A stretch of 64,000 nucleotides of DNA from a virus. Taxonomy: Duplodnaviria > Caudoviricetes. The notes beneath the pieces are model-generated. The model was not told the DNA's origin, searched no databases, and worked only from the letters and a program-made list of their open reading frames with translations. Position numbers and translations under genes: made by a program. Of the stretch, positions 1 to 59,904 are shown piece by piece. Every line of letters begins with the position of its first letter. Within the stretch, counting starts at the first letter, position 1. The stretch is from the IMG/VR virus record IMGVR_UViG_3300021387_000661, positions 192,001-256,000 of that record; one strand, written 5' to 3'.

Positions 1-322
1 GCTTGGTCCCATCAGGAAGTGATTGTTCATCTATTGGTTTATAAAAATTATCATTGTCTGCCGGGATATTGAGGACATCCCCATCTTTTATTGAAAATGG
101 ATTGAAGATATGATTTGCATACATAACCAAATCTATCATATCAAGATTTTGGGAGGTATTTCTCCAGACAAAATTATCTAACCTACCCTGTTCATCGCTG
201 TTGACACGTTCTACAAAATTACCATACATTCTACTAACATCAACAACAGGAATACACATATTTTTATATTCCTCACCATCAAATCCTATATATGTGTTCT
301 TTATATCAAAAATTTTTTCCAT
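1..322 (-). CDS. LysM-type baseplate wedge protein (T4 gp53-like), partial; runs off the window edge
   Basis: Manual translation MEKIFDIKNTY...GRLDNFVWRNTSQNLDMIDLVMYANHIFNPFSIKDGDVLNIP matches the RxD...N.I.NP.....G..L.IP LysM pattern; not in the ORF track because it is truncated. Confidence 0.6.
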   Translation of the reverse strand, partial: MEKIFDIKNTYIGFDGEEYKNMCIPVVDVSRMYGNFVERVNSDEQGRLDNFVWRNTSQNLDMIDLVMYANHIFNPFSIKDGDVLNIPADNDNFYKPIDEQSLPDGTK

Positions 323-334
323 TTTAACTTATTT

Positions 335-2125
335 TTATTTTAAGATTCCTCCCATTGTCCTTACCACAAGATTATTAACTGATGATCTTTTGTGTATGGA
401 TGGTGTGGTGGAATATTTACCATCTATTTCATATGTTTTATTTGCTTCCTGATTTTCCATATTCTTGTCTGGCTGGAAATTCTGCATGGAATCAATGGAT
501 CTATATGCATTCAATATATCACCATTTGTAAATGAATAAAATCTACCTTTTGAACCATTGAACATATTTTCAATCATTGAGTTGTCTCTTGGCATACAGT
601 GCTCCATTTCAACAATGAATTTTATTTCAGTAGGAAAATCATCATATCCCAAAGCATCACCAAACTGTACTGTGGTTTTTGTCACGGCCATATTTCCCAT
701 CATAGCAATGGGATCAAGTGGATTTCCAATGGTCACATGCCAGAAACCAGATGGATTTCCAGAAAGAAGTGCAGGAACAGCCACACCTTCACCAGCTACA
801 CCAATATTACCACCAAGAAGATTACCAACAAGACCCTGAATAAATCCAGATCCTATTGTCTTCAATCCATTTACAAGTTTACCCATAAAAGTATCAGGTG
901 TAGAACCGTCACTTGACAGGGATATCTTTCTAAATCCTTCCCTGACATCTCCGGCAAGACTCCTTAAATATGCACCATATTTACCCTGTCTTAATAAATC
1001 CGGATCACCATATTGAGGTGCAATGTTTCTGTTACCATAGAATATTGTCTCACCACCCCAGAATGAACCATAATTACCTGTAAGAATTAAGAAATTTGAC
1101 AAGATGTCCATCATAGCAATCCTTGGATTCACACATTTCAATGATTTCAATGAATATTCAAATGTTAGTGAGAAACTATTTGAGAATGTAAGACCTCTAC
1201 TTCTCAATTTTACTTTATTTACAACATTAATGTCACCATAAAGTTCTTCACCATATCTAGCATTAAAAGTATTGCCCTCATACCTATGTTGAGCAGCCAT
1301 TGCCTCTGCCATATTTTTCCCCTTTCCTGCCACCATAGCAGACATAATCCACAAACTTTTTGACTGTGCAGTTAAACTGTTACTACCACCCACCTGGGCT
1401 TCACCAGTTAATAGGTTTGTAGAGTCTCTTCTTCTCATCTGTGCTGCAAGACCACCATCCGGGTTTTGTAAGGATTCTGTTTTTCCTTCCCTTTCCTCCC
1501 AGTTTGCACCATAATCAAACTTGAGAATATCTGAAAGTTTATTACCTGTCTGTTCTCCCATATATGTAACCGCTGTTGCAAGGGCAAAATATTCATCTGG
1601 ATAATCATTCATCCTGTTTACCATTTCAGCAGGCATATCCAATCCAAACATATGATCAGAACAAGGTCGCGTATACCTTCTTAATGTAATCATATAGTTG
1701 TTTGGAATTTGATTGTAATATTTCAGATAGATAAAATCCTGCATTTTGTACCTTGCAAGACCATGCGGATCAAAATCATCAGAACTATAATAAGATATGA
1801 TATTTTTATATGTGGGATTTTTCTTATCTCTTAAATATGCTTTAAGATATTCATCCTTCATAATACATCTTTCATAGTCACTATATTCTGTGAAATTTAT
1901 ATCCTGTGAGAACATAGGATATCCATTATATATAGTTCTGTAGTTAATTGCCACATTGTCATTCATAATGGAATGAGGGAGGGCAATTACACCATTTGAT
2001 TCATCTGAAGCAACAAAGAAATCCAACCCATCATCCTTATCTGCACTTACATTTTTAACCTCGACAGGAAATGGGGTCATTCTTGCATCTACATTACAAG
2101 CATCAAAATAAAAAGTATTTGGCAT
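335..2125 (-). CDS. Putative virion structural (baseplate/tail-tube initiator-like) protein, 596 aa
   Basis: Long ORF next to the LysM wedge gene, with a CATAAATA element upstream on the minus strand; function inferred from context. Confidence 0.45.
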   Translation of the reverse strand: MPNTFYFDACNVDARMTPFPVEVKNVSADKDDGLDFFVASDESNGVIALPHSIMNDNVAINYRTIYNGYPMFSQDINFTEYSDYERCIMKDEYLKAYLRDKKNPTYKNIISYYSSDDFDPHGLARYKMQDFIYLKYYNQIPNNYMITLRRYTRPCSDHMFGLDMPAEMVNRMNDYPDEYFALATAVTYMGEQTGNKLSDILKFDYGANWEEREGKTESLQNPDGGLAAQMRRRDSTNLLTGEAQVGGSNSLTAQSKSLWIMSAMVAGKGKNMAEAMAAQHRYEGNTFNARYGEELYGDINVVNKVKLRSRGLTFSNSFSLTFEYSLKSLKCVNPRIAMMDILSNFLILTGNYGSFWGGETIFYGNRNIAPQYGDPDLLRQGKYGAYLRSLAGDVREGFRKISLSSDGSTPDTFMGKLVNGLKTIGSGFIQGLVGNLLGGNIGVAGEGVAVPALLSGNPSGFWHVTIGNPLDPIAMMGNMAVTKTTVQFGDALGYDDFPTEIKFIVEMEHCMPRDNSMIENMFNGSKGRFYSFTNGDILNAYRSIDSMQNFQPDKNMENQEANKTYEIDGKYSTTPSIHKRSSVNNLVVRTMGGILK

Positions 2126-2146
2126 ATATACATATATGATATATGA

Positions 2147-2168
2147 TATTTATGAATATCCATAAATA
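2147..2168. promoter_or_regulatory. Divergent pair of CATAAATA late-promoter-like elements
   Basis: TATTTATG (minus) and CATAAATA (plus) lie between divergent genes; resembles T4 late TATAAATA. Confidence 0.55.
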
Positions 2169-2201
2169 TTCTATATAAGGTTGTTAAGATATTTTTTACT
2201 T

Positions 2202-3551
2202 ATGTCAAATTCAACAAGATATTTTCAATTGACTCCAGATATACTTGTGGAGTATAATTATAGTAGTTTAAATACAGGAACAATTAGTATTGGACATGAT
2301 AAAGGTAAGATTATTGCAAGAACACTGACTTGGGATGATTCTGGTTTTGTTTTACCTGTGAATAAATCCGAATCAAAATTTATTGCTGCTGGATTCCCCA
2401 TCAGTAAATCTGGATTCACTCCAGAATCTATAAGTGAAGGTATATGTAATGTATTCGCTGATACATTTAAACTTCAATTTACAAGTAGAAATTATTTTGG
2501 AAATAATGGTTATGATGGGTTTATAATTACTGTAAATATATATGACAAAATAAAAAATAAAATTTGTTTGTTTTCTCATTATGTAAGAAAAACAGATGAT
2601 ATCAGTATTAATGAAAATCCTCTACTCATCAACCAAAAGTTATATACTGCAAATTTAAGTTTCAAGATTCCTAATGTATATGCAATATTATATCCGGAAA
2701 AGGTTGTAAATTCTAATGATGAAAATCTATTAAGGTCTAAATTGTTTCCTACATATGGTATATTGGATAACACACCTATAATTATGAGTATATATGGTGT
2801 AAAATCCACTGTGGTTGAGCATACACATGAATATTATACTGTAGAAAAAATTAATTCCATTTATATCCCTGTTGAAGATCATACAAAAAAATTGAACTTC
2901 ACCATTTATGAAGATAAAAAATATGACTACTTTGTAATTAAAACTGATAAAGATAGTGGATCTTTATCTTCTTATTTGAATACTATATCAGATGGTCATC
3001 CTGAATTGTATATTGTATTCCATGAATTAACTGTTACAGAAAACGTTGTGGATAGTAATAATGATCCCCATAGTGAAATCACACACCATGAACAGTTTCT
3101 CATAAATGGTGGAAAACAAACTGAAGATGGAATTATTGTAAATGGCAGTGAACTGGATAAAGAAATATATTTCAGACCTGTTATACGGTATGCAGACAAG
3201 GATGTATCTGTTAATATTGATGTAAAAACTTATATTATCAACACTCTTGACAATACAACAATAGTAAAACATATATCCCTTGATAGTAGAGATCCAGAAA
3301 GTAGATTCGACCCTAACAAATATGGTAAAAAAATAAATCAAATTGTACTTGATGGTTCTGAAAACAATAAAAAATTGACACAGGTGAAAGTATATAACAA
3401 GAGACCAGACATTGATCTTGATGGTGTTAAGATTACCAATGCCAGTTCTAATGTCAAGATTGAAAACCACCAGCATTCAGTTATTGGGTTTATTGAATGT
3501 GCAAATGTGGGGGTTTCAATAGAACAAATACCAACAGAGTTGTTACAGTAA
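2202..3551 (+). CDS. Hypothetical protein (probably late/structural)
   Basis: ORF track; ATG start chosen at 2202. Confidence 0.75.
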   Translation: MSNSTRYFQLTPDILVEYNYSSLNTGTISIGHDKGKIIARTLTWDDSGFVLPVNKSESKFIAAGFPISKSGFTPESISEGICNVFADTFKLQFTSRNYFGNNGYDGFIITVNIYDKIKNKICLFSHYVRKTDDISINENPLLINQKLYTANLSFKIPNVYAILYPEKVVNSNDENLLRSKLFPTYGILDNTPIIMSIYGVKSTVVEHTHEYYTVEKINSIYIPVEDHTKKLNFTIYEDKKYDYFVIKTDKDSGSLSSYLNTISDGHPELYIVFHELTVTENVVDSNNDPHSEITHHEQFLINGGKQTEDGIIVNGSELDKEIYFRPVIRYADKDVSVNIDVKTYIINTLDNTTIVKHISLDSRDPESRFDPNKYGKKINQIVLDGSENNKKLTQVKVYNKRPDIDLDGVKITNASSNVKIENHQHSVIGFIECANVGVSIEQIPTELLQ

Positions 3552-3580
3552 AAGAGAACTAAAAAGTTCTCTTTTTTTTT
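3551..3580 (+). terminator. Intrinsic terminator
   Basis: AAAGAGAACT/AGTTCTCTTT hairpin followed by a T run. Confidence 0.75.
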
Positions 3581-3630
3581 TGGAATTGTCAGAAATTATT
3601 ATTATCTTTGTGGTGAAAACAAGATGATAT

Positions 3631-3831
3631 ATGAAAAAGATTAAATTCAACTTTCAGGGAAAACAAAGAGTTCACACTTTTTTCTTTGGGATTAAACCTG
3701 GTGTTAATGGATTTAGTATCCGTGATGACAGGGGTATTCTTCATGACTGTTTACTTACAAATAATGTAGTGAATATCTATGGACTGGATTCAGATGTGTT
3801 GGAAGAAAAGAGTAATGTTGAAATACTTTGA
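3631..3831 (+). CDS. Hypothetical protein
   Basis: ORF downstream of a TTTG...TATCTTTG promoter. Confidence 0.55.
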   Translation: MKKIKFNFQGKQRVHTFFFGIKPGVNGFSIRDDRGILHDCLLTNNVVNIYGLDSDVLEEKSNVEIL

Positions 3832-3836
3832 ACAAT

Positions 3837-4448
3837 ATGCTTACAATAAAAGAAATTAAGGATTCTGGTGGTCTTTATACCATTCCTTCTTATGTACATT
3901 TCAACAAGGATATTTGTTTTGACTTTCGCTTGTTTGATGCACTTGTCAACCCAAATTCTGATGGGTGTGCAGACTATAAATATGACTTTAATGTCTATCT
4001 GCCAAAATATGGTGTATATCTTCAGAGACCTTATGTTTGGGAGCATTGTCAGCAGCAGGAGTTTATTCTATCTATACTCCAGGAGAAACCTATTGATTCC
4101 ATCATCCTGGTTCAGCATGATAATGACACAAACAGGATGAATAGGACAAACATAGTAAATTATGTCATTGATGGTAAACAGAGGTTGATGACCATCCAGA
4201 AGTTTGCCAATAATGAGTTCCCTATATATATCAATGGGAAGGAGTACTATTTCAGGGATTTTGATAAAGACCTTCAGAGGTTCTTCAAATCCAGGGTCAA
4301 CTATTTCATTGGTACTGTGTATTACTCTTACCCTGATGCACCGGTGACTGAAGATATGCTCATCACCCTCTTCAATTTCTACAACTTTGCCGGGACACCA
4401 CAGACAGAGGAACATAAAAATAAACTTCAAAGTTTGTTGGAAAAATAA
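3837..4448 (+). CDS. DUF262 (ParB/Srx-like, GmrS-type) domain protein
   Basis: LQRPYVW and VIDGKQRLMTI motifs. Confidence 0.8.
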   Translation: MLTIKEIKDSGGLYTIPSYVHFNKDICFDFRLFDALVNPNSDGCADYKYDFNVYLPKYGVYLQRPYVWEHCQQQEFILSILQEKPIDSIILVQHDNDTNRMNRTNIVNYVIDGKQRLMTIQKFANNEFPIYINGKEYYFRDFDKDLQRFFKSRVNYFIGTVYYSYPDAPVTEDMLITLFNFYNFAGTPQTEEHKNKLQSLLEK

Positions 4449-4537
4449 GTCTTATTTCCATTATTACAAAAAAATCGCCCTCATTTGAGTGCGATTTTTT
4501 CTTATTTCTGCACTAAACTTGGTGCGATTATTAAAAT

Positions 4538-5002
4538 TTAGTCTTTATCTTCTTTTTTCTTCTTTTTCTTATCGTCATCGTCATCATCTTTCTCCTCTTT
4601 CTTCTCGTCCTTTTCTTTTACCTCTTCCTCTTCTTCGTGCTTCTCCTCTTTTTTCTCTTTCTTTTCACCATCTTTCTTTTCTCCCTTATCACCTTCTTCT
4701 TTTTCAGATGGTTTTGCATCAGTATTTTCTGTTGGTTTTTCATCAACATCCTTACCACTGACAACATCCTTGGCAATGACAGTTTCATCTTTTTCTACAG
4801 GAACAATAACATATGATTTATTAAGTTCATCATTATGTTTCTTCAAATTCTTTGTTTCTGGACATTCTTCTTTCTCACCTTCTGCTGTTTTTTTATTCCA
4901 GTAGGTTTCATAATCATCAATTGTACCTTGATAATAACGGATTTTTTTCAAAATGAAATCTTCTTGACCTTCTACAGGTATTTTTTTATCTTCTTTACTC
5001 AT
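4538..5002 (-). CDS. Hypothetical protein with a highly charged K/E/D tail
   Basis: ORF track; low-complexity C-terminus. Confidence 0.7.
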   Translation of the reverse strand: MSKEDKKIPVEGQEDFILKKIRYYQGTIDDYETYWNKKTAEGEKEECPETKNLKKHNDELNKSYVIVPVEKDETVIAKDVVSGKDVDEKPTENTDAKPSEKEEGDKGEKKDGEKKEKKEEKHEEEEEVKEKDEKKEEKDDDDDDKKKKKKEDKD

Positions 5003-5077
5003 AATATAAATATCTATTATAAGTTATTTATGATAGTTTATTTTTGTTATATTTATTAACAGGTAAATAAGTATTTT

Positions 5078-5878
5078 ATGAGTAAGAATTATTATGATGT
5101 TCTGGGAATAAAAAAGACAGCAACCCAGGATGAAATAAAGAAAGCATATAGGGAGTTATGTAAAAAATACCATCCTGACAAGAATGGTGGTGATGATACA
5201 AAATTCAAAGAAATTAATGAGGCATATGAAACCCTTGGAGATGAAACAAAGAGAAAGCAATATGACTCACCTGGTGGATTTGGTGAATTTGGTGGATTTA
5301 ATGGGTTTAGTGGATTCAATGGGTTTAATGGATTTCATGGATTCAGACAAATGGCATCTGATATACAAATGAAGATAACTATATCCATTGAAGATGCATA
5401 TTATGGTTGTAAATATCCTGTTAATGTAAATGGAAAACTCTATTCAATAGATATACCAAAAGGCATTACAAATGGAAAGGTATTGAAAATATCAGGACTT
5501 GGTACAAAGGGGTATAATATATATGGTGAACAAACCACTGGAGATTTAATTGTACATATTTCTGTACAAAATACAGATAAGATGTATTTAACAAGTATGG
5601 TTAATGGTACAACTGTTCTTGAAGTTCTCCAGGCGGTAGACTGGATAGATGCAATACTTGGTGCAGAGATTACTGTGAAGGTGTTTGACAGGGATGTGAA
5701 GGTAAGAGTTCCTAAATTCACACAGAATGGTGGATATACTATGGTTGGTGGTCAGGGTTTCCACAAGTATAATTCAGATGAACTGGGGAGTTTGAGAGTT
5801 AACTTTATTATTAAAATGCCAAAAAATCTCACAGACAGTCAACTTGAACAACTTAAAAAAATAAAAGAGAGCATGTAA
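5078..5878 (+). CDS. dnaJ: DnaJ/CbpA-type co-chaperone
   Basis: J-domain with HPD, G/F-rich linker, C-terminal substrate-binding domain, no zinc finger. Confidence 0.92.
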
Positions 5879-43052: not shown

Positions 43053-43364
43053 ATGGAAATTATTAAAGACTTGAATCCAGAAACCAGGAAATACAAATTC
43101 ATTCACTGGGGGTGTTGTGAGTTTACAGCCCTTGAAAATGAATTCAAATGGACTGCTGGACAATATAATGAGACAACTGCAAGTGTAGTTTGTCCAAAGT
43201 GTGGGAAACAGTTTTATCAAGATCCAGAAGAGATTAAACCAGAAACACCATCATTTGATGATTGGCCAAAGGTAACAAACTGTCCAAAGAATTGTAAGAT
43301 ATGTCAAGCCAAATGTTTATACAGGAAGGAGAAGTATAATGATTATGTGTCTCCAAAAGATTAA
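43053..43364 (+). CDS. Hypothetical Cys-rich protein
   Basis: ORF track. Confidence 0.6.
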   Translation: MEIIKDLNPETRKYKFIHWGCCEFTALENEFKWTAGQYNETTASVVCPKCGKQFYQDPEEIKPETPSFDDWPKVTNCPKNCKICQAKCLYRKEKYNDYVSPKD

Positions 43365-43431
43365 TTTTTTTGTTATATTTAATTTACATAAATACTTTAG
43401 AAAGTCAAAAATCAATTTACATAAATATAGT

Positions 43432-43503
43432 ATGATGACATTAAATAACATATCAAATAGGAAATCCGATTTAAGAAAATTGGATTCTTTTGGTGTGGTA
43501 TAA
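43432..43503 (+). CDS. Leader peptide 1 (MMTLNNISNRKSDLRKLDSFGVV) of putative tRNA-array attenuator
   Basis: 23-codon ORF after tandem TTTACATAAATA; overlaps alternative hairpins. Confidence 0.7.
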   Translation: MMTLNNISNRKSDLRKLDSFGVV

Positions 43504-43568
43504 TGTCAATAAGATAACAAGCATATCATCTAAAACCACACCTTTGAAAAAAGATGTGGTTTTTTTTG
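43436..43568 (+). promoter_or_regulatory. Attenuator 1: protector TGACATTA/TAATGTCA, antiterminator GGTGTGGT/ACCACACC, terminator AAAACCACA...TGTGGTTTT plus T run
   Basis: Mutually exclusive pairings read directly from the sequence. Confidence 0.7.
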
Positions 43569-43576
43569 ATAAAATA

Positions 43577-43608
43577 TTTGGAAGTTTAAAAAAAAGTTGT
43601 TATATTTG
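43577..43608 (+). promoter_or_regulatory. Bacteroidota sigmaA-type promoter
   Basis: TTTG-N20-TATATTTG. Confidence 0.7.
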
Positions 43609-43757
43609 TAGTGTTGAAAGTTCATTAAAATAAAGCCAATCCGCCCAGTCGGAAAAGTAAGATTATGGAAACATCCATGTGGGATGGTTTACGAATCATC
43701 AACACCGTCGATTCGGGACTTCTGAAATAAAAAAGTGGTACTTGACTTAAATTGATT

Positions 43758-43830
43758 GCAACCTTGGCGCAGTGGCTAGCGCAACTGACTTTTAATCAGT
43801 GGGTCTCGGGTTCGAATCCCGAAGGTTGCA
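43758..43830 (+). tRNA. tRNA-Lys(TTT)
   Basis: Cloverleaf; ACTGA-CT-TTT-AA-TCAGT. Confidence 0.93.
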
Positions 43831-44028
43831 CACAAAACATAAATTTATTTTGATATTTGAAAAATTTATGTTATATTTGTAATACACGTACCCAGGTTGA
43901 GATAAATTTTGCAAGAATTTATAATATAATTACTGATTCCCTGGGTTTTAAAATCCACAATGGCAGATGCGCACAGTCCCGGAGTGGTTGAGTGAGGAGG
44001 ACTTGCAATAACCTCCAAACAAAAGGAA

Positions 44029-44102
44029 GTCTTGTAGTTTAATGGTAGAATGCCTGCCTCGAAAGCAGGAGATGGATGCAGGGTTCGAATCCCCCCAAGA
44101 CA
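44029..44102 (+). tRNA. Atypical tRNA-Ser(CGA)-like
   Basis: CCTGC-CT-CGA-AA-GCAGG arm; weak T stem and no Ser-type variable arm. Confidence 0.45.
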
Positions 44103-44127
44103 ACAAAGTTAGTTCATTGAAAATATT

Positions 44128-44293
44128 GCCCTGGTGGTGGAATGGTAGACACGAGGGACTTAATTAGCAGAGTAAACTGTCTTAAAAAATCTTGTTTGGA
44201 AAATATAGGAACTTTGACAGGTTCAAATCCTGTTTCCAGACCAATCCCTTGGCCTGCAAGGCCTTGCGGGTTCGACTCCCGCCCGGGGCACCA
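44128..44293 (+). tRNA. tRNA-Leu(TAA) with 79-nt tRNA-like insertion (44164-44242)
   Basis: AGGGA-CT-TAA|insert|AA-TCCCT; long variable arm; encoded CCA. Confidence 0.85.
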
Positions 44294-44355
44294 ACATAGT
44301 TGATTCTGACTGTTGTCAGACTTGAGGTTAATGACAGGACCTTCAACTATTAAAT

Positions 44356-44434
44356 GCGGGTGTATCGCCACTGTCTTATACACAGTCATTAACAGCGTAA
44401 TTGGTGTATGGGGGTTCAAGTCCCTCCACCCGTA
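44356..44434 (+). tRNA. D-arm-less tRNA-Ile(TAT)-like
   Basis: GCGGGTG/CACCCGT acceptor, ACTGT-CT-TAT-AC-ACAGT, long variable region, T arm. Confidence 0.6.
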
Positions 44435-44447
44435 CAAGCTTATTTGA

Positions 44448-44625
44448 AACAGCACTGGTACAAGGATCCATACCAGTAAAGATGAGATGGTAGCGCTGAA
44501 GTCTACGAACCTTAACAGGAAGTATCCGGATTCAAACTCCTGTCCTGTGTTACGGAACCAGTCTGGGTCACCAGGGTTTAATTGGGATGGAAACACCCAA
44601 GGAAGAGAAACCACCTTATGCTGTT
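44448..44625 (+). ncRNA. Candidate structured ncRNA
   Basis: AACAGCA/TGCTGTT closing stem with internal hairpins (CTGGTA/TACCAG, TTGGG/CCCAA). Confidence 0.4.
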
Positions 44626-44629
44626 ATAT

Positions 44630-44701
44630 GCTTCCATAGGTCAACGGATAGACTGACTCTCCCCTAAAGAGTAGATACATGTTCAATTCATGTTGGGAGT
44701 A
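44630..44701 (+). tRNA. tRNA-Arg(CCT)
   Basis: ACTCT-CC-CCT-AA-AGAGT. Confidence 0.85.
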
Positions 44702-44713
44702 CAAAACATAAAT

Positions 44714-44787
44714 GGCCCCTTAGCTCAGCGGATCAGAGCAACAGCCTTCTAAGCTGTGGGTCCTGCGTTCGAATCGCAGAGGGGTCA
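44714..44787 (+). tRNA. tRNA-Arg(TCT)
   Basis: ACAGC-CT-TCT-AA-GCTGT. Confidence 0.95.
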
Positions 44788-44885
44788 CAAAAAAAGTTTA
44801 AAAGATAATGAGACAGTATAAACATAAACAGTAGTTGTGTTGGTATCATCCAGAAAGATGAGACCAACCAAGTCATATATGGAAA

Positions 44886-44960
44886 GGTCTCGTGGCGCAA
44901 CTGGATGAGCGCACCTGTCTTTTAAACAGGGTGTTATGGGTTCGAGTCCCATCGGGACCA
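44886..44960 (+). tRNA. tRNA-Lys(TTT)
   Basis: CCTGT-CT-TTT-AA-ACAGG. Confidence 0.92.
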
Positions 44961-44969
44961 CAAGGTATT

Positions 44970-45042
44970 GGCCTTGTAGCTTAGATGGTAGAGCACCACC
45001 CTTTTAAGGTGGGAGTCGTGGGTTCGAGCCCCACCGGGGTCA
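44970..45042 (+). tRNA. tRNA-Lys(TTT)
   Basis: CCACC-CT-TTT-AA-GGTGG. Confidence 0.92.
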
Positions 45043-45267
45043 CAAAGATTAAAGTTTGAAATATATGGGTGGCTTGCATGCAGTTCTTGATAAGTCAGAT
45101 ATAGTACTTACTGATACTGTCTTGAACCAGAGTAAAAAGACCGGTACCTGATTGCAATAAGTTCCCACCCACCCTTTACCTGACAGGTCGAGCGTGATAT
45201 GGTCGCCTGTATTCACCAGACGTGGAGAAGAGACATTGAAACTCTGTCAGGTTTTTAATAGATTATT

Positions 45268-45624
45268 ATGGAAAAGAAACCAAAGATAAAGTGGAAGAAT
45301 TTTAAAATCTGGATCAAAGACCAGTTCAAGAGGAAGACCTGGTTCAGAAACTTTTTCATCACTGGGAATGCCTGGGGAGGGTTCAGTATCAACTCTCACA
45401 TCAACCAACATACAGGTGAACCAAAGATAACATACAATCATCTTGAATCCGCCCAGAAGGCTGCTGACAAGATGGGACAGAAACACAACACACACTTCAG
45501 TGTTTACAAGTGTCTTTACTGTGATGGTTATCATATTGGAAAGAACAGGGAGAACAAGACAGATTATGACAAGAAGGTAGTTACAAATGTTGAAGTAAAA
45601 GACAAGACTTTAATACTTAAATAA
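45268..45624 (+). CDS. Hypothetical zinc-binding protein
   Basis: VYKCLYCDGYHIG. Confidence 0.65.
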   Translation: MEKKPKIKWKNFKIWIKDQFKRKTWFRNFFITGNAWGGFSINSHINQHTGEPKITYNHLESAQKAADKMGQKHNTHFSVYKCLYCDGYHIGKNRENKTDYDKKVVTNVEVKDKTLILK

Positions 45625-45625
45625 G

Positions 45626-46078
45626 ATGAACACACTTGAAAATACAATTCAGAAGGATCTGGTTCAGGCAATGAAGAACCATCAGGAACACACTGTTGCA
45701 GCATTGAGGTCTGTTAAGACTGCCATTATGGAAGTGAAGACCGCTGCCAATGGTAAGAAGGATTTGGAAGATGGTGACATTGTGAAGATCATCCAGAAGT
45801 TAGTTAAGCAAAGGAAGGAGAGTATGGACATCTATTCCCAGGCAGGTAGGCATGAACTTGCAGACAATGAGCAGCAGGAGATGTTTGTGTTGATGAACTA
45901 TCTTCCAAAGATGCTCACTGAATCAGAGGTGGAGGAAATTGTTGTGAAGACGATCGCAGACCTTGGTGCAACCTCAATGAAAGATATGGGAAAGGTGATG
46001 GGATTCATCAATAAGACTTATGCTGGACAGGTGGATGGTTCTATGGTATCAAGAATTGTTAAATCTAAATTAGGATAA
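45626..46078 (+). CDS. GatB/YqeY domain protein
   Basis: KQRKES...Y.QAGR.ELA..E, YLPKML, DMGKVMG. Confidence 0.92.
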   Translation: MNTLENTIQKDLVQAMKNHQEHTVAALRSVKTAIMEVKTAANGKKDLEDGDIVKIIQKLVKQRKESMDIYSQAGRHELADNEQQEMFVLMNYLPKMLTESEVEEIVVKTIADLGATSMKDMGKVMGFINKTYAGQVDGSMVSRIVKSKLG

Positions 46079-46079
46079 T

Positions 46080-46271
46080 ATGGCAAAGTTTGTTGTTTAT
46101 GCTCATGACAAGACTGATGTAGAATCAAATCTCATCTATGTATGTACCTGTGACACCAAAAATATGGCAAAGAGTATTACAAGTGCTATGAGGTTCAGGG
46201 ATTCCGGTGGAAGGAATGATGGGTCGGGTTTATATGATTATTATGTTAGAAAAGAAGATTGGATAGTATGA
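46080..46271 (+). CDS. Hypothetical protein
   Basis: ORF track. Confidence 0.55.
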   Translation: MAKFVVYAHDKTDVESNLIYVCTCDTKNMAKSITSAMRFRDSGGRNDGSGLYDYYVRKEDWIV

Positions 46272-46495
46272 AAACCTGGATTATAGTTTTAGCAATTGTA
46301 TTTGTTGTTTTAAAGTTAGTTCAGCGGTTTCTTGCAAACTATATCAGAAATGACAGATTGGAAAGTGTAAAATACTACTTTCTTGATGGTGCAACAACAC
46401 TTGGGGTGATACATGGACTTGTTTCTTTATTTTGTATATTGGTTGGTTGTACAGATTTGATTTTATTGTTTATTTATTTGTTGAATTTAGTATGA
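46268..46495 (+). CDS. Small membrane protein
   Basis: Two hydrophobic segments. Confidence 0.55.
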   Translation: MKTWIIVLAIVFVVLKLVQRFLANYIRNDRLESVKYYFLDGATTLGVIHGLVSLFCILVGCTDLILLFIYLLNLV

Positions 46496-46983
46496 AGAAT
46501 ATAGCATTGGTTGCCCATGATGGAAGAAAGAAAGAATTGATGGAGTGGGTAAGGTATAATTGGGAAACTCTTTCAAAGCATAATTTATATGCAACTGGTA
46601 CAACTGGAAAATTGATTAGTGGTATTGAAGTGGATCTTGGATTTGGTGGTGGAGAAGGAGTTTATAGGAGACAGATTGAGTATCCTTTGAGGAGTAAAGT
46701 AACATGTCTCAAATCTGGTCCACTTGGTGGAGATCAACAGATTGGAGCAATGATTGCAGAAGGAAAGATAGATGTATTGATATTTTTCTGTGACAATCTC
46801 ATTACACAAGGTCACCAGACAGATGTGTCTGCACTTACCAGACTTGCATCACTTTATAATATTGCATTTGCAACAAACAGGACAACTGCTGATATGATTC
46901 TTACATCACCATTGTTCAATGATGAAAATTATAAGATGATTGTTCCTGATGTGATTGAGAAATATAAAAACAGACAAATTTAA
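46492..46983 (+). CDS. mgsA: Methylglyoxal synthase
   Basis: IALVAHD..K, LYATGTTG, SGPLGGDQQIGA, H..DV.AL.R. Confidence 0.93.
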   Translation: MKNIALVAHDGRKKELMEWVRYNWETLSKHNLYATGTTGKLISGIEVDLGFGGGEGVYRRQIEYPLRSKVTCLKSGPLGGDQQIGAMIAEGKIDVLIFFCDNLITQGHQTDVSALTRLASLYNIAFATNRTTADMILTSPLFNDENYKMIVPDVIEKYKNRQI

Positions 46984-47081
46984 TAAAAACATAAATATTT
47001 TTATCTGGGATTTGGAAAATAAAATATTTTTTGTTATATTTGTATTGTTATTCAGAAAGAGTTCTTTGAATTTAGAAATAT

Positions 47082-47400
47082 ATAGGTCTTGTTGATGCTT
47101 TCAGGAAAGACTGTAGGACAAGGGTTCGAGTCCCTTCAGGTCCACAAATAAACACACTTAAGTCATCGGAGTACGCCTCTGTAATGATTGAGGAATTCAC
47201 TAAACGGTGTGGAAAATCAGGTTGAGTAGGCTTCGTATCTCAACCAACTTTGGGCCTGCCTGGTTTTGACTGCTTTTGAGTATGGAGAGTGGAGAGGTCT
47301 ATTGCCAATAACTGGCAAAAACAACGGTTTCTCTGTAAACTTTGGCCCTGTCGCACAGACAGCTACTCCAAAGGCTATGGTTGCTTTCGCTTAATTGCAG
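47082..47400 (+). ncRNA. ssrA: Circularly permuted (two-piece) tmRNA; tag (A)GKNNGFSVNFGPVAQTATPKAMVAFA*
   Basis: T arm and CAGGTCC-A (ends 47144) precede GGGCCTG-CCTGGTTTTGAC (47252); G3-U70 pair; ATAACT-GGC resume site at 47314; stop at 47394. Confidence 0.88.
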
Positions 47401-47505
47401 GCTTGAACATAGTAGATCTTTCACCAGGTGGATGATCCAGAGGGTTTCTCATTCCATCTTTCCAAATAAGATGGATACTTTGAAAGTTCTTTATAATAAA
47501 TATTT

Positions 47506-47681
47506 GGCCAGGTAGCTCAGCTGGTTTAGAGCAGCGGACTGTATAAGGAGTGGTTTACCGAAACAAACCAATCTGGTATAGTTTAATGGCAAAATGCCTC
47601 GGGTCGTAGATGATGGTGGTTCGATTCCACCTACCAGATCTAATCCGCGGGTCGTGGGTTCGAGTCCCTCCCTGGCCGCCA
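47506..47681 (+). tRNA. tRNA-Asn(GTT) with 98-nt tRNA-like insertion (47543-47640)
   Basis: GCGGA-CT-GT|insert|T-AA-TCCGC; G73 discriminator; CCA. Confidence 0.8.
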
Positions 47682-47683
47682 AA

Positions 47684-47763
47684 GTACATAGGATGTAAGT
47701 GCACACATATGTTGGGTTCGGGTATGATTAACCCACAGAGGTTTGAGTCCTCTCTATGTACCA
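47684..47763 (+). ncRNA. tRNA-like element (acceptor plus T arm, no canonical anticodon arm)
   Basis: GTACATAG/CTATGTAC; AGAGG-TTTGAGT-CCTCT. Confidence 0.55.
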
Positions 47764-47800
47764 AATATAAGTTCTTTGAAAAATAAAAACTTCATACAAT

Positions 47801-48071
47801 GGAGGAGTGGGAGAGTGGTTTATTCCAGCGGTCTTGTTAATTCGAGTGCTTCCAGAGGAATCTGGAAAGTAGAATTCCCCTAATTCGGTGGAACCTTAAC
47901 AGGTAATGCTGATGGTAATACCGAGCCAATGTTTAAAGACAGTGTGTAGAGACTTTACAGGGAACATCCAGAACGGATGAAGATAAAGTCCAGACCACAA
48001 TATGAAAGTAATGTGTGTAAGGAAAACCGCCGCTCCGAAAGGGGCCGTCGGTTCGAATCCGGCCTCCTCCG
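47801..48071 (+). tRNA. tRNA-Ser(TGA) interrupted by a group I intron
   Basis: GCGGT-CT-T|intron|GA-AA-ACCGC; long variable arm; G73. Confidence 0.88.
47836..48021 (+). mobile_element. Group I intron (186 nt, no ORF)
   Basis: Follows U and ends in G; P AATTCGGTGGAAC, Q AATACCGAGC, R GTGTAGAGACT, S AAGATAAAGTCC. Confidence 0.88.
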
Positions 48072-48259
48072 CTAAATATACAAATTTCAAAAAAGTTTGT
48101 TATATTTATTAAGGTTTTGTTATGTGTTTGTTTGTTTAAAGATTCATACCGCAACAATTAAAAGCTCAAACTGATAATTTGATTACTTTCTTTTGAATCT
48201 TGTTTTCTTTAACAAACATAAATTTAACCAGGCTTTTATAAACAATTAATAATTAAAGT

Positions 48260-48886
48260 ATGAAGAAATTTTTAGTATTTCTTATGAGTATTATGCTCAT
48301 GATTGGTGTGAGTGCATGTACTTGCTCCCAGCAGAAGAAAACTTCTGAACTAAAGGCTGGTGAACTGGTTGTTGAGAATGTCATCTCCCTTGACCGTCAG
48401 GCAATGAACCTTGCACATGGTGGTAATTACAGGTGGTTTGAGACTGGTGTTCAGCTCAAGAACTTCCTTGATGAGGAAAATGATGGTACCATTGATTTGG
48501 TTGTCAATGTTTTCCAGGTAGTTGAGGAGTATGATTCTACAAGTTTTGATACCTTTGTTTACAAGTATCAGCACTTCTCTGATGGTTCATTTAATGAGGA
48601 AGGTGTTCATGGTTTCTGGGTTGAAGATTACCCTCTTGAGAATGAAGCAATCAAGGTAACCTTCAAGGAAGCTTTTGAAAAGGTCCAGGAAGTTAATCTC
48701 CCTAAACCTCACACCCGTCAGGTAGTATTGAGGAAGCAGGTTGGTCCTGTTGAGGCAAATCCTCAGTGGATTTTTGGTAACCTCCATTCACAGATTTATG
48801 TTGATGCTGTGACTGGTGCAGTTTCAAAGGACAATCCTGCATTCAATGGTCTCAATCTTGGTACACCTCTTGGTGAATGGCCTTAA
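48260..48886 (+). CDS. Putative lipoprotein (PepSY-like C-terminus)
   Basis: MKKFLVFLMSIMLMIGVSAC lipobox; IYVDAVTGAV. Confidence 0.7.
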   Translation: MKKFLVFLMSIMLMIGVSACTCSQQKKTSELKAGELVVENVISLDRQAMNLAHGGNYRWFETGVQLKNFLDEENDGTIDLVVNVFQVVEEYDSTSFDTFVYKYQHFSDGSFNEEGVHGFWVEDYPLENEAIKVTFKEAFEKVQEVNLPKPHTRQVVLRKQVGPVEANPQWIFGNLHSQIYVDAVTGAVSKDNPAFNGLNLGTPLGEWP

Positions 48887-48967
48887 TAGAAATCGGTGAG
48901 GTAGTTAGTTTTGCACTCTCGTCATAAATAAAATGCAGACTTGGCAATCTGGAACAGACAGATATTA

Positions 48968-49092
48968 CTATGATGTGACAAGGAAGTGGAATACTTGCGC
49001 CACGAGATAATATCAGATGGAGGAAAGAGGAAGGGTTCTTCGTAAAAGTTGCCCAATAGGGAATGGAGGTTCGAGTCCTCCCATCATAGCCA
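48968..49092 (+). ncRNA. Enlarged tRNA-like element ending in CCA
   Basis: CTATGATG/CATCATAG; GGAGG-TTCGAGT-CCTCC. Confidence 0.55.
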
Positions 49093-49097
49093 AACAT

Positions 49098-49172
49098 TGC
49101 GGGGTAGACTGGAGAGGTTCCAGCCCGGTCTCATAAGCCGGTCCACGTGGGTTCGAATCCCACCCACCGCTA
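49098..49172 (+). tRNA. Initiator-type tRNA-Met(CAT)
   Basis: CCGGT-CT-CAT-AA-GCCGG; 1:72 mismatch. Confidence 0.75.
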
Positions 49173-49177
49173 CTAAA

Positions 49178-49226
49178 TGCCAGTATAAGACAGTATATAT
49201 GTAAGTTCAACTCTTACTATTGGCGC
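49178..49226 (+). ncRNA. tRNA minihelix (acceptor plus T arm only)
   Basis: GCCAGTA/TATTGGC; GTAAG-TTCAACT-CTTAC; 15-nt linker. Confidence 0.55.
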
Positions 49227-49324
49227 AAAAAAATACAAAATATTTTCATAAATATTTGGATATTTCAAATTTTTTTGTTATATTTGTATTGTTAAGTTCT
49301 TTGATAAATATTGTAAAAATATAA

Positions 49325-50170
49325 GGGTGGGTTTCTCATCCTTCCTGTATCCTTCGGGAGAAAGGAGAAAGATAACCAGTGAATACATAAGCTGGGAAAG
49401 TCAGTGTGGCGCAATCTTGCCCCTGGCGGAGGAGTTTTCCTCTCTACAAGAAAACCAAGGCAGTCAGCATATCCTGGAATGGCAGGACACTGTGAAAGGG
49501 ATATGCGGGGGTTCTTACCAAGTCTCCTTGAGTGGTAACACTGACAAGTGCTGTTTTGCTTCCAGACAAGAAGATTACCAGTCTTATGGTTTGGATGACC
49601 AAAGTTTATTGATGTCCAAAAGGAATTACCAGATTCCTCTAACAGGTGGTGCTGAGATCAGAAATGGTTGGATGTTAGAATGAGTAGAATGAGTAACACA
49701 GCGGTGTGTGAAAATAGAAAGGCGATGTATCTAACCCTCTCAAAAGGAGGCAGGATAGCAAGGGCAACCTCGTCTTTCAAATGGTAGAGTGCTAAATGAT
49801 TCATTAAAGATTATGACCAAAATGATCAATAAAAAATTATTAAGCAAGCAAAAGTGTTGCCCACACTACAGGACAATATGGTTATGCTTCTGTGATATGA
49901 AGCCTTATGGAACTCGCAAGGTGAAGTAAGAGTATTGTAAGTAGGGACAATGCAAGAGGAGGCATCCTCTTAACTCGGCAGAGGTCTTTGGCTTGAACAC
50001 ATCTATATAATGTAGTGTAGTGACTGTGGTAGTCTTGGTGGAAACACCATAAATCCATCCATATCCTCCTTACCAGTAGCGATGCTGGTGTGTATAAACT
50101 CTGGGCGACCAGGGCTTGTCCTGAAAGGGAAGAGAACAGGAGGCGATTAGGGTCAACACTCAGCCCCAAT
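49325..50170 (+). ncRNA. Giant structured ncRNA, GOLLD-like
   Basis: About 850 nt of GC-elevated, gene-free sequence after a promoter inside the tRNA array; many hairpins; ACAGGTGGTGCTG, GCAAAAGTG and 3' CTCAGCC motifs recalled from GOLLD-like RNAs (not verified). Confidence 0.55.
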
Positions 50171-50397
50171 CAAACAAAAATTTATTCAGTGTCAGTAACC
50201 AGTCTGGTATGGAAGAGCGAGACTTCCCCGAATAACAAAAGTCATTTCATAAAGGTACAGAACCTCTGCGAAATAGAACCACAAGGAGGGTTTTCCAAGG
50301 CCAGGGACTTGACTTGAAACATACTTTCTTGGGTTCTAAAGGAAGTTGAAGAGTGAGTTTGCATTCAGTCTATGAGTGGTTTTATCTCTTCATCCAT

Positions 50398-50472
50398 AGT
50401 GCGTTAGTTCAGCCTGGTTAGAATGCCACACTGTCACTGTGGAGGTCACGGGTCCGAATCCCGTACGCACTG
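50398..50472 (+). tRNA. tRNA-Asp(GTC)
   Basis: CCACA-CT-GTC-AC-TGTGG; G73. Confidence 0.92.
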
Positions 50473-50706
50473 CAAATGGTAAAGAACCATACCGCAACAT
50501 TTGAATGAAATACATTTTTGGGTTATGTAGCAATTTTGGTTCTTGTTTTTCCTTGTTTAGCAAAACAAGGTGGTGGAGTTGGGTGGAAACACTGTCCTCT
50601 GTGAGTGGTAATCTCACATAAATAACTTACCATTTATTTTGAAATTTTAATTTACATAAATATATTAGAAAGTAATTTACATAAATACTTTAAAAGAATA
50701 AAAATT

Positions 50707-50829
50707 ATGATGACATTGCATACACATATGGTATTTGCTGCTATTGCAGGTAAGCCAGGTTGCTACCGTTTTTGGGAACAACTCGGACAGAAGGGTGTGT
50801 GTATGTCATCTGAAAATGAAAAACAATAA
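50707..50829 (+). CDS. Leader peptide 2 (MMTLHTHMVFAAIAGKPGCYRFWEQLGQKGVCMSSENEKQ) of putative tRNA-array attenuator
   Basis: 40-codon ORF after tandem TTTACATAAATA; contains 19 of 20 amino acids. Confidence 0.7.
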   Translation: MMTLHTHMVFAAIAGKPGCYRFWEQLGQKGVCMSSENEKQ

Positions 50830-50923
50830 GTGGAGACCATTATAGGAGAAAGGTTAAAACTTAAACAAATATAGAAGAACGACATCTCACACAAATCACA
50901 AAAAGGTTTATGTGAGATTTTTT
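50709..50923 (+). promoter_or_regulatory. Attenuator 2: protector GATGACAT-T-GCATACA/TGTGTGT-ATGTCATC, antiterminator with GACATCTCACACA, terminator ATCTCACA...TGTGAGAT-TTTTT
   Basis: Mutually exclusive pairings; first tRNA begins about 10 nt downstream. Confidence 0.7.
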
Positions 50924-50932
50924 AATTTATAT

Positions 50933-51008
50933 TGGGTAGTGCGGTAGTTGGTCACCGGCTGCATTTGGGATGCAGACATTCACGCAGGTTCGAGTCCTGT
51001 CTACCCAA
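50933..51008 (+). tRNA. tRNA-Pro(TGG)
   Basis: CTGCA-TT-TGG-GA-TGCAG. Confidence 0.85.
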
Positions 51009-51018
51009 CAAAGTGAAT

Positions 51019-51093
51019 GGGCTGGGTAGTGTAATCTGGAAGCACATCACTCTGGCAGAGTGAAGGATGGGGTTCAAATCCCCCCTGTGTCCA
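51019..51093 (+). tRNA. tRNA-Ala(GGC), irregular acceptor stem
   Basis: TCACT-CT-GGC-AG-AGTGA; G3-U70. Confidence 0.75.
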
Positions 51094-51115
51094 CAAAGAT
51101 AATAAAACAAAGTTT

Positions 51116-51358
51116 ATGGAGACACTCAAACAGATTGTAAAAGGTAGTGCAAAATTGGACTGCATCAAGAGTGGTGGTGTTGCTGAATACATCATTACAT
51201 CAGAAAGCAACAACAAATATATGTTGGAAATAGATTTATCTGATAAAGTTGATTGTGGAGAGAGTGCATCATTTATGCCTTTTTATGAGAAAGCTATAAT
51301 TCTTATGCGATGGATTCGTCGTGCGATGGATAAAGGTGAATTAATTGAACTTTGTTAA
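51116..51358 (+). CDS. Hypothetical protein
   Basis: ORF track. Confidence 0.65.
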   Translation: METLKQIVKGSAKLDCIKSGGVAEYIITSESNNKYMLEIDLSDKVDCGESASFMPFYEKAIILMRWIRRAMDKGELIELC

Positions 51359-51420
51359 AAAAATACTAAAAGATTTGGAAGTTTCAAATATTTTTGTTAT
51401 CTTTGCAGTAGAAAATAAAT

Positions 51421-51495
51421 GCTGGGATATCTGCTAGTGGTCCAGGCGATGTGCCTTTCAAGCATGTGACACGGGTTCGAATCCCGTTCCCAGTA
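51421..51495 (+). tRNA. tRNA-Glu(TTC)
   Basis: TGTGC-CT-TTC-AA-GCATG. Confidence 0.8.
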
Positions 51496-51654
51496 CAAAG
51501 GAGTGAAGGGAAAATCCAACCAACACTTCACATAGAGCGAAACAGAACCTGATAATGATTCCTGCTGAAGGATAAGGCAAGGTGAAGATAGGGGTTCAAT
51601 GAGGTTGAAATGATGCATGCTCAAAGTAAACAATATATAATGCTCGACAATTAT

Positions 51655-58750: not shown

Positions 58751-58905
58751 GCCGAGGTAGCTTTAATGGTAGAGCACCTGACTTCTACAGATTTATCCAC
58801 TGTGACGGATATTGGGTAATATGGGAGAAGAAGTCAACTTTTACGTCCGAAGCGTAAGTTATCCACGTAATCAGGGGGTTGCAGGTTCGACTCCTGTCCT
58901 CGGCT
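58751..58905 (+). tRNA. tRNA-Thr(TGT) with 82-nt tRNA-like insertion (58785-58866)
   Basis: CCTGA-CT-T|insert|GT-AA-TCAGG (a CGT reading is possible if the junction is shifted). Confidence 0.85.
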
Positions 58906-59752: not shown

Positions 59753-59904
59753 GCCGGAGTAGCTTTAATGGTAGAGCATCTGACTTCTACAGAGTGGTTT
59801 CTGAAATAAACCTTGGGTAGAATGGGAGAATGATTATACAAACGTCCGAAGCGTTATCTACTCACGTAATCAGAGGGTTGTCGGTCCGAATCCGGCCTCC
59901 GGCT
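59753..59904 (+). tRNA. tRNA-Thr(TGT) with 79-nt tRNA-like insertion (59787-59865)
   Basis: TCTGA-CT-T|insert|GT-AA-TCAGA. Confidence 0.85.

Follow-up and report, generated by a model that had tools for sequence, protein, structure and literature searches.

Between 43.7 and 63.1 kb of a 64,000-nucleotide stretch of viral DNA (hereafter the window; bases 192001-256000 of the 344,746-bp IMG/VR phage record IMGVR_UViG_3300021387_000661, with an estimated completeness of 94%), ARAGORN and Rfam detect at least 35 tRNA genes and a tmRNA gene, in a sequence of about 35% G+C. The tRNA genes form two blocks, each preceded by a small cassette of promoter-like boxes, a short open reading frame (ORF, the leader) and a predicted intrinsic terminator. 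Block 1 encodes tRNAs Lys-TTT (three genes), Leu-TAA, an Ile-TAT-like species, Arg-CCT, Arg-TCT, Asn-GTT, Ser-TGA and Asp-GTC, and block 2 encodes 25 other tRNA species; these assignments combine ARAGORN runs that allow introns, Rfam matches and homology to relatives whose genes lack introns. This report concerns cassette 2, which directly precedes block 2 and comprises, in window coordinates, the following elements and neighbours:

50651-50662, + strand: promoter-like box A, TTTACATAAATA, exact match
50676-50687, + strand: promoter-like box B, TTTACATAAATA, exact match, 19 nt before the leader ATG
50707-50829, + strand: leader ORF 2, 40 codons plus TAA, MMTLHTHMVFAAIAGKPGCYRFWEQLGQKGVCMSSENEKQ, starting ATG ATG ACA TTG
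50709-50725, + strand: region 1, 5' strand of the putative anti-antiterminator, from the start codons to codon 7, paired with 50795-50810 in the minimum free energy (MFE) and centroid folds
50758-50783, + strand: conserved hairpin within the ORF core (GGUUG...CAACU), present in all folds, a possible pause hairpin
50795-50810, + strand: region 2 (GUGUGUGUAUGUCAUC, codons 30-35), alternative partner of regions 1 and 3
50881-50892, + strand: region 3 (GACAUCUCACAC), common to the putative antiterminator and the terminator
50884-50923, + strand: predicted intrinsic terminator, with an 8-bp plus 5-bp stem (50884-50918) and a U6 tract (50918-50923)
50933-51094, + strand: tRNA-Pro(TGG) and tRNA-Ala(GGC), the first genes that the terminator would gate
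51374-51405, + strand: next Bacteroidota-type promoter (TTTG-N20-TAnnTTTG), inside block 2

An earlier note, made from the letters of this DNA alone, had described tandem boxes followed by an ATG ATG ACA TTR start, and a terminator about 10 nt before tRNA-Pro with no promoter in between. Both descriptions are borne out: the two copies of TTTACATAAATA are exact, the ORF begins ATG ATG ACA TTG, and the U tract ends at 50923, leaving 9 nt before tRNA-Pro at 50933, a gap into which no promoter-like site fits, so that tRNA-Pro would be obtainable by read-through only. With up to one mismatch, TTTACATAAATA has 9 matches against 1.2 expected. The leader RNA is predicted to fold into a 5' helix between the start-codon region and codons 30-35 and, downstream of it, the terminator hairpin (z -3.5), the terminator alone reaching -12.8 kcal/mol (z -5.1). 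Its 5' region is A-rich, as expected for initiation in Bacteroidota, and 19 of the 20 amino acids are present in the 40-residue peptide. A cmscan search of positions 43000-64000 against Rfam, with E values up to 1, returned no leader family (Trp_leader, His_leader, Leu_leader, Thr_leader and others), no T-box (RF00230) and no riboswitch family. Contigs from four gut metatranscriptome runs were compared with positions 43300-51500, and one 166-nt sheep-gut contig spans 50672-50837 at a depth of 5.5; it is compatible with a leader transcript but blind to ends, strand and termination, and could derive from DNA carry-over.

We assembled 15 distinct sequences of leader 2 and 15 of leader 1, its counterpart before block 1, mostly from ruminant-gut metagenome contigs, plus three IMG/VR giant-phage records. 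Pattern scans and whole-record searches located both cassettes also in the IMG/VR giant-phage records G001 (153 kb) and G002 (411 kb), in which only box B is retained, and one metagenome scan yielded about a dozen more of each leader. By blastn, the cassette had only a chance Microviridae match among 50,697 GenBank phage records, and degenerate peptide-based patterns run against IMG/VR recovered no relatives beyond the two already known. Leader ORF 2 looks translated, judging from its alignment. It is open in all 15 relatives, spans 37-40 codons, and every indel within it is a multiple of three; its variable columns are distributed 13/13/27 over the three codon positions, and changes in the core AGKPGCYRFWEQLG are almost only synonymous or at third positions. 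The surrounding architecture is equally steady, with a terminator that is near-invariant in 13 relatives, 7-15 nt between terminator and tRNA-Pro in all relatives, and a stop codon that lies 9-19 nt past region 2 in all of them. The hairpin within the core is preserved in relative L183, in which GGT has become GGC and its pairing partner CAA has become CAG, both synonymously (by eye, in the alignment).

The codon content of leader 2 mirrors the tRNA genes that follow it. As the earlier note had proposed, every one of codons 1-33 can be read by a tRNA encoded downstream (ARAGORN and Rfam, including two intron-bearing Thr-TGT genes), and codons read only by block-1 tRNAs (AAA, TTA, AAY, ATA, AGR, TCN and GAY) do not occur among them, nor do they in 14 of the 15 relatives. 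Across 248 phage ORFs, 30.5% of all codons are of this class, and the chance that 31 codons would contain none is P = 1.2e-5. Leader 2 samples 21 of the 25 block-2 tRNA species (P = 0.006), and its synonymous choices, given the amino acids (AAG twice, CGT, no ATA and no TTA), have a probability of about 0.013 (calculated by hand). The difference in codon choice between the leaders is likewise real: leader 2 uses AAG, CGT, ATT and CTC/TTG, and leader 1 uses AAA, AGA/AGG, ATA and TTA. CGT accounts for 7% of the Arg codons of the phage, yet it is invariant in all 15 leader-2 relatives. A six-frame scan of the whole 345-kb genome found 17 runs of at least 30 codons free of block-1 codons and stops, among which leader 2 shares the top rank in tRNA-species diversity. 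In either leader, codons of the other block are confined to the tail of the ORF, which forms region 2, and the pattern is also present in divergent relatives such as L092. Exceptions among the relatives are an AAA at codon 29 of the G001 leader 2, and ACA, GGT, or TTC together with TTT in three leader-1 cores.

The strongest evidence for a match between codons and tRNA genes comes from a natural relocation of tRNA-Phe in the sequence of relative L165, together with a reciprocal change of its leaders. The tRNA-Phe(GAA) gene of L165 is found in block 1, and the place that it normally occupies, between tRNA-Pro and Leu-AAG / Lys-CTT, is without it. Leader 1 of L165 alone carries Phe codons (TTC and TTT) in the sensing core and its leader 2 alone has none, both having been lost; within the latter, the otherwise invariant RFW has become RPW through a TTT to CCA replacement that required three base changes. 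A sister contig (L135/L181) still has tRNA-Phe in block 2 and the usual leaders, and the L165 tRNA-Phe shares 87% identity with its block-2 counterpart in relative L125. A comparable case is L098, which has ACA in its leader-1 core and Thr-TGT in block 1. The codon-to-block match is thus not only statistically extreme, it tracks the relocation of tRNA-Phe, and events of this kind are not easily squared with chance or with nothing more than a small protein gene.

The alternative 1:2, 2:3 and 3:4 pairings that the earlier note had proposed find support in the folds, in conservation across 15 relatives, in the choice of partner by the terminator and in one coordinated substitution. Leader 2 is predicted to have mutually exclusive 2:3 antiterminator and 1:2 anti-antiterminator helices, and its stop codon appears positioned so that a terminating ribosome would cover region 2. 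In every relative tested (13 of 13 for leader 2), the best upstream partner of the terminator 5' arm is the end of the ORF, at codon 34 for leader 2, with energies of -13.9 to -17.8 kcal/mol and P values of 0.000-0.022 against shuffles; for leader 1 this partner lies at the stop codon. Across the leader 2 alignment, 83% of the cells of the 1:2 helix and 95.8% of those of the 2:3 helix are paired, against 10-75% in slid controls, or 11-75% for the 2:3 helix considered alone. Pairing was counted on the named helices instead of RNAalifold columns; RNAalifold found no double-sided covariation in the leader 2 alignment, partly owing to three sequences misaligned in region 2. In G002, region 2 changes from U to C, region 1 from A to G and region 3 from A to G (alignment column 210), the three-way signature expected if region 2 has two alternative partners, seen in a single lineage. 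In RNA folded as it exists before synthesis of the terminator 3' arm and with a 27-nt ribosome mask, the 2:3 helix is the MFE structure of four out of four relatives once region 1 is covered. If ribosomes are assumed to queue every 10 codons, the antiterminator is favoured while the lead ribosome is at codons 1-26 and is lost from codon 27 to the stop.

Cassette 1 has the same architecture:

43383-43608, + strand: paralogous cassette 1
43383 and 43416, + strand: its promoter-like boxes
43432-43503, + strand: leader ORF 1, 23 codons
43532-43567, + strand: terminator
43577-43608, + strand: host-type promoter

Ten pairs in helices P1-P3 of leader 1 carry compensatory changes, and its antiterminator helix is 96% paired, with G-C, U-A, G-U and U-G variants of the closing pair. 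In the folding model, under the same 27-nt ribosome mask, seven of seven relatives switch in a near all-or-none manner: the terminator 5' arm is sequestered when a ribosome sits at codons 1-13 or 1-16, and is free without a ribosome or when the ribosome is anywhere from codon 17 through the stop. This sensing window coincides with the run of block-1 codons. The 13 consecutive block-1 codons form the longest non-repetitive run of this kind in the genome, the only other run as long in the six-frame scan being a simple repeat, and they cover eight of eight block-1 species (P = 0.027). The peptide itself is not conserved (variable columns 12/12/15 by codon position), yet all 15 copies retain the ORF and the structural position of its stop despite frame-shifting indels. 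Both leaders fold far better than shuffled sequences.

We therefore favour, with a probability of about 0.65, the reading of cassette 2 as a leader-peptide transcription attenuator of the trp/ilv type that gives feedback control of the phage tRNA supply. Its steps, all inferred, would be as follows. The late-type TTTACATAAATA boxes would start transcripts that carry the 37-40-codon ORF. If the ORF were left untranslated, region 1 would pair with region 2, and the terminator would form and stop transcription 9 nt before tRNA-Pro; under fast translation, the ribosome at the stop codon would cover region 2 and the terminator would form again. Slow ribosomes would instead cover region 1, so that region 2, now free, could pair with the terminator 5' arm and let RNA polymerase enter the tRNA genes. 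The sensing part of the ORF holds the codons of block 2 in an almost one-of-each inventory and avoids those read only by block-1 tRNAs, with leader 1 as its mirror image, and slow decoding of the codons of a block would make its cassette raise transcription of that tRNA block.

Several observations weigh against this attenuator reading. A single ribosome frees region 2 of leader 2 only from codons 1-11, and sensing at codons 12-27 requires ribosome queues, which are an assumption. The equilibrium contrast is weak for the leader 2 of this genome (baseline 0.60) and absent for that of G001 (0.99); in the full-length leader at equilibrium, a single ribosome mask hardly destabilises the terminator, and the switch would therefore have to be kinetic, as in trp. 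Covariation in the leader 2 helices comes from one lineage, and 33 of 500 shuffles are equally good. The codon pattern was noticed after the fact, the G001 leader 2 breaks it with its single AAA, and ACA (Thr) opens both leaders regardless of which block has Thr-TGT. About 1.8 kb of block 2 of L165 lies outside the comparison, and a second tRNA-Phe could be located there. In relative L141, the tRNAs that follow leader 2 include Asn, Asp, Lys-TTT, Leu-TAA and Arg-CCT/TCT; this sequence (reverse complement, 1-5293) is a mosaic in which leader 2, Pro, Ala and Glu match the present genome, and its array of Asn, Asp, Lys-TTT, Leu-TAA and Arg tRNAs is partly homologous to block 1 of this genome. The strongly conserved core peptide could also have a function of its own. 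Finally, Bacteroidota-type promoters lie inside block 2 at 51374, 55857 and 56785, among the following:

43577, 43849, 47011, 49255, 51374, 55857 and 56785: host-type promoters after the leader 1 terminator or inside the arrays

Most block-2 tRNAs can therefore bypass the leader 2 terminator, the attenuators would gate only transcription begun at the late-type boxes, and, given the promoter at 51374, only tRNA-Pro and tRNA-Ala stand strictly behind that terminator. The broader statement of the earlier note, that the two leaders monitor almost the whole tRNA pool, overstates the gating, in view of these internal promoters and of the block-1-type tRNAs behind leader 2 in L141. An extended reading, in which both cassettes form a distributed surveillance switch of the tRNA pool, each leader serving as the codon inventory of its block and being rewritten by selection when tRNA genes move, is possible but doubtful. 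Were it true, the phage would re-induce exactly the block holding the replacements, either late in infection or upon depletion of particular tRNAs by host anticodon nucleases or a codon mismatch, and giant phages would have a general, so far unpublished mode of tRNA gene regulation.

Among the competing explanations, an ordinary small phage protein gene followed by a leaky constitutive terminator would make tRNA-Pro and tRNA-Ala products of fixed read-through and the codon pattern a by-product of the peptide. Purifying selection at the amino-acid level on the core AGKPGCYRFWEQLG, the capacity of host-type promoters elsewhere to supply most tRNAs and the broken partition of L141 all speak for it. 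Such a gene leaves unexplained, however, why the terminator 5' arm is constantly complementary to the end of the ORF and covaries with it in the three-way change, why the rare CGT and the AAG choices are invariant, why Phe codons are gained and lost reciprocally with the move of tRNA-Phe, including a non-conservative F to P replacement in the core, and why a mirror-image paralogue conserves the codon class and not the peptide; we regard it as unlikely. Slightly less credible is a nascent peptide, KPGCYRFWEQLG, acting as a ribosome-arrest sequence of the TnaC, SecM or Erm-leader kind, whose stall would control the terminator with the codon inventory as a secondary feature. The ORF-plus-terminator architecture fits this explanation, as does a strongly conserved core with Trp, Pro and Gly situated 10-20 residues before region 2, but L165 has Pro in place of the central Phe, leader 1 has the same architecture with a variable peptide, no resemblance to known arrest peptides came up, although no search was aimed at it, and arrest does not predict the avoidance of block-1 codons.

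The fold of both cassettes, far better than that of shuffles, and the rich covariation in P1-P3 of leader 1 without peptide conservation would also suit a non-coding structured RNA, be it a self-terminated small RNA or a leader of riboswitch or T-box kind that binds tRNA or protein, the ATG ATG being incidental. This is improbable in the face of the excess of third-position substitutions and the in-frame indels of leader 2, the constant position of ORF and stop in all 15 leader-1 copies despite frame-shifting indels, the codon classes that track tRNA gene content, and the lack of any match to an Rfam family, T-box or other, at E values up to 1. The idea that codons and tRNA blocks correspond by chance or through composition, in a pattern spotted post hoc, has very little in its favour: leader 1 is rich in A, as are the codons that block-1 tRNAs read, and the pattern was found by inspection, yet the genome-wide six-frame scan, A-rich sequence included, gives one other equally long run, a simple repeat, the pattern recurs in divergent relatives such as L092, and the Phe swap of L165 would have to be coincidental.

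The closest known counterparts of cassette 2 as an attenuator are the multivalent attenuators of enterobacteria (ilvGMEDA and thr), and the single-amino-acid trp, his, leu and pheA leaders are also alike. Shared with leaders of the trp/ilv type are a promoter-proximal short ORF, the 1:2, 2:3 and 3:4 helices, an intrinsic terminator immediately ahead of the genes under control, a stop codon beside region 2 and, clearly in leader 1, regulatory codons at positions from which a stalled ribosome would free region 2; as in the ilv and thr leaders, several amino acids would be sensed at once. Unlike the leaders of amino-acid operons, the cassette has tRNA genes and not biosynthetic enzymes as its targets, and samples about 21 tRNA species once or twice each in place of runs of one codon. 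It also differs from enterobacterial leaders in belonging to a phage of a probable Bacteroidota host and in a region 1 that includes the start codons, and it has no sequence similarity to Rfam leader families. The pheST attenuator (pheM leader) and the T-box resemble the proposed mechanism in that tRNA status feeds back on the decoding machinery through a choice between terminator and antiterminator; however, pheM controls a synthetase and senses one amino acid, and T-boxes, found mainly in Firmicutes, bind uncharged tRNA directly, have no ORF and carry a conserved T-box motif. With tnaC, the ermC/ermB leaders and secM, the cassette has in common that a short, conserved leader peptide precedes a regulated step of transcription or translation, but those need a specific arrest sequence plus a ligand or force, whereas the paralogue peptide here is variable and the conserved core accepts F to P precisely in the relative whose tRNA-Phe has moved.

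Discussions of phage tRNA genes usually treat them as static cargo for codon usage or anti-defence, and little has been described of how their expression is controlled. If the attenuator reading holds, cassette 2 would be the first case on record in which decoding speed feeds back on the transcription of tRNA genes. The classical trp/ilv paradigm would then reach a new target class, phages and Bacteroidota-type hosts, and the division of giant-phage tRNA arrays into blocks would have an explanation. The leaders could serve as compact sensors of tRNA availability, and the natural Phe swap offers a ready-made, falsifiable experimental design. Full-text literature searches returned no account of tRNA operons or phage tRNA arrays being controlled by attenuation or by leader peptides; the mention of a 'tRNA operon' in PMC3082878 is unrelated.

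Two promoter families recur in the genome. The Bacteroidota sigma-A pattern TTTG-N19-21-TAnnTTTG has 20 copies in the window where 2.7 would be expected, almost all of them on the + strand, and a longer common version is present in dozens of copies in each of three genomes:

3579, 18086, 21292, 23278, 36896, 43577, 47011, 49255, 51374 and 56785, mostly + strand: examples of Bacteroidota-type promoters (TTTG-N19-21-TAnnTTTG)

Because of this excess, and because the relatives come mostly from rumen and other ruminant-gut metagenomes, the phage host is probably a rumen Bacteroidota. The second family, TTT[AT]CATAAATA, has about 25 copies genome-wide, typically just past a hairpin and T-run and 17-69 nt upstream of long ORFs, and is reminiscent of the T4 late TATAAATA. 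It is probably a late promoter, since structural genes lie behind its boxes, as at genome positions 102441 (tail sheath) and 112194 (head maturation protease). Further copies in the window are:

36869, - strand: TTT[AT]CATAAATA box
49243: TTT[AT]CATAAATA box
59621: TTT[AT]CATAAATA box

Upstream of the boxes of cassette 2, at 50601-50619, stands a conserved hairpin (TGTGAG-TGGTAAT-CTCACA), also found in G001 and L165, whose 3' arm repeats the 5' arm of the terminator (ATCTCACA).

Five tRNA genes of the window contain insertions of 79-208 nt in the anticodon loop, and those of Asn and Ser were confirmed through homology to intron-less genes in G002 and G001:

44128-44290: intron-bearing tRNA Leu-TAA
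47506-47681: intron-bearing tRNA Asn-GTT
47801-48072: intron-bearing tRNA Ser-TGA
58751-58905: intron-bearing tRNA Thr-TGT
59753-59904: intron-bearing tRNA Thr-TGT

Two further genes are tRNA-like. That at 44028-44104 (77 nt) combines a weak D arm with an unusual variable region, is 93.5% identical to a copy in G002, and receives from ARAGORN the 'anticodon' CGA, AGA or GTA-with-intron depending on the relative; that at 44356-44434, missed by ARAGORN and scored at 31.7 bits by Rfam, has a clear TAT anticodon loop (Ile, ATA) with an aberrant D arm and a long variable region. Block 1 also includes a phage-encoded tmRNA (47053-47485) with the tag peptide GKNNGFSVNFGPVAQTATPKAMVAFA, near-identical in L165, and two protein genes (45626-46078 and 46432-46983), one YqeY-like (GatB/YqeY domain, E 2e-46) and possibly tRNA-related, the other with an MGS-like domain. 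A GOLLD-like large RNA lies at 49717-50166, after the late-type box at 49243 and the host-type promoter at 49255, and matches Rfam RF02032 over its full length (87.6 bits, E 8e-22, under the gathering score of 150). In the four gut metatranscriptomes it has by far the top contig depth, up to about 1500, and remains high over 49328-50149.

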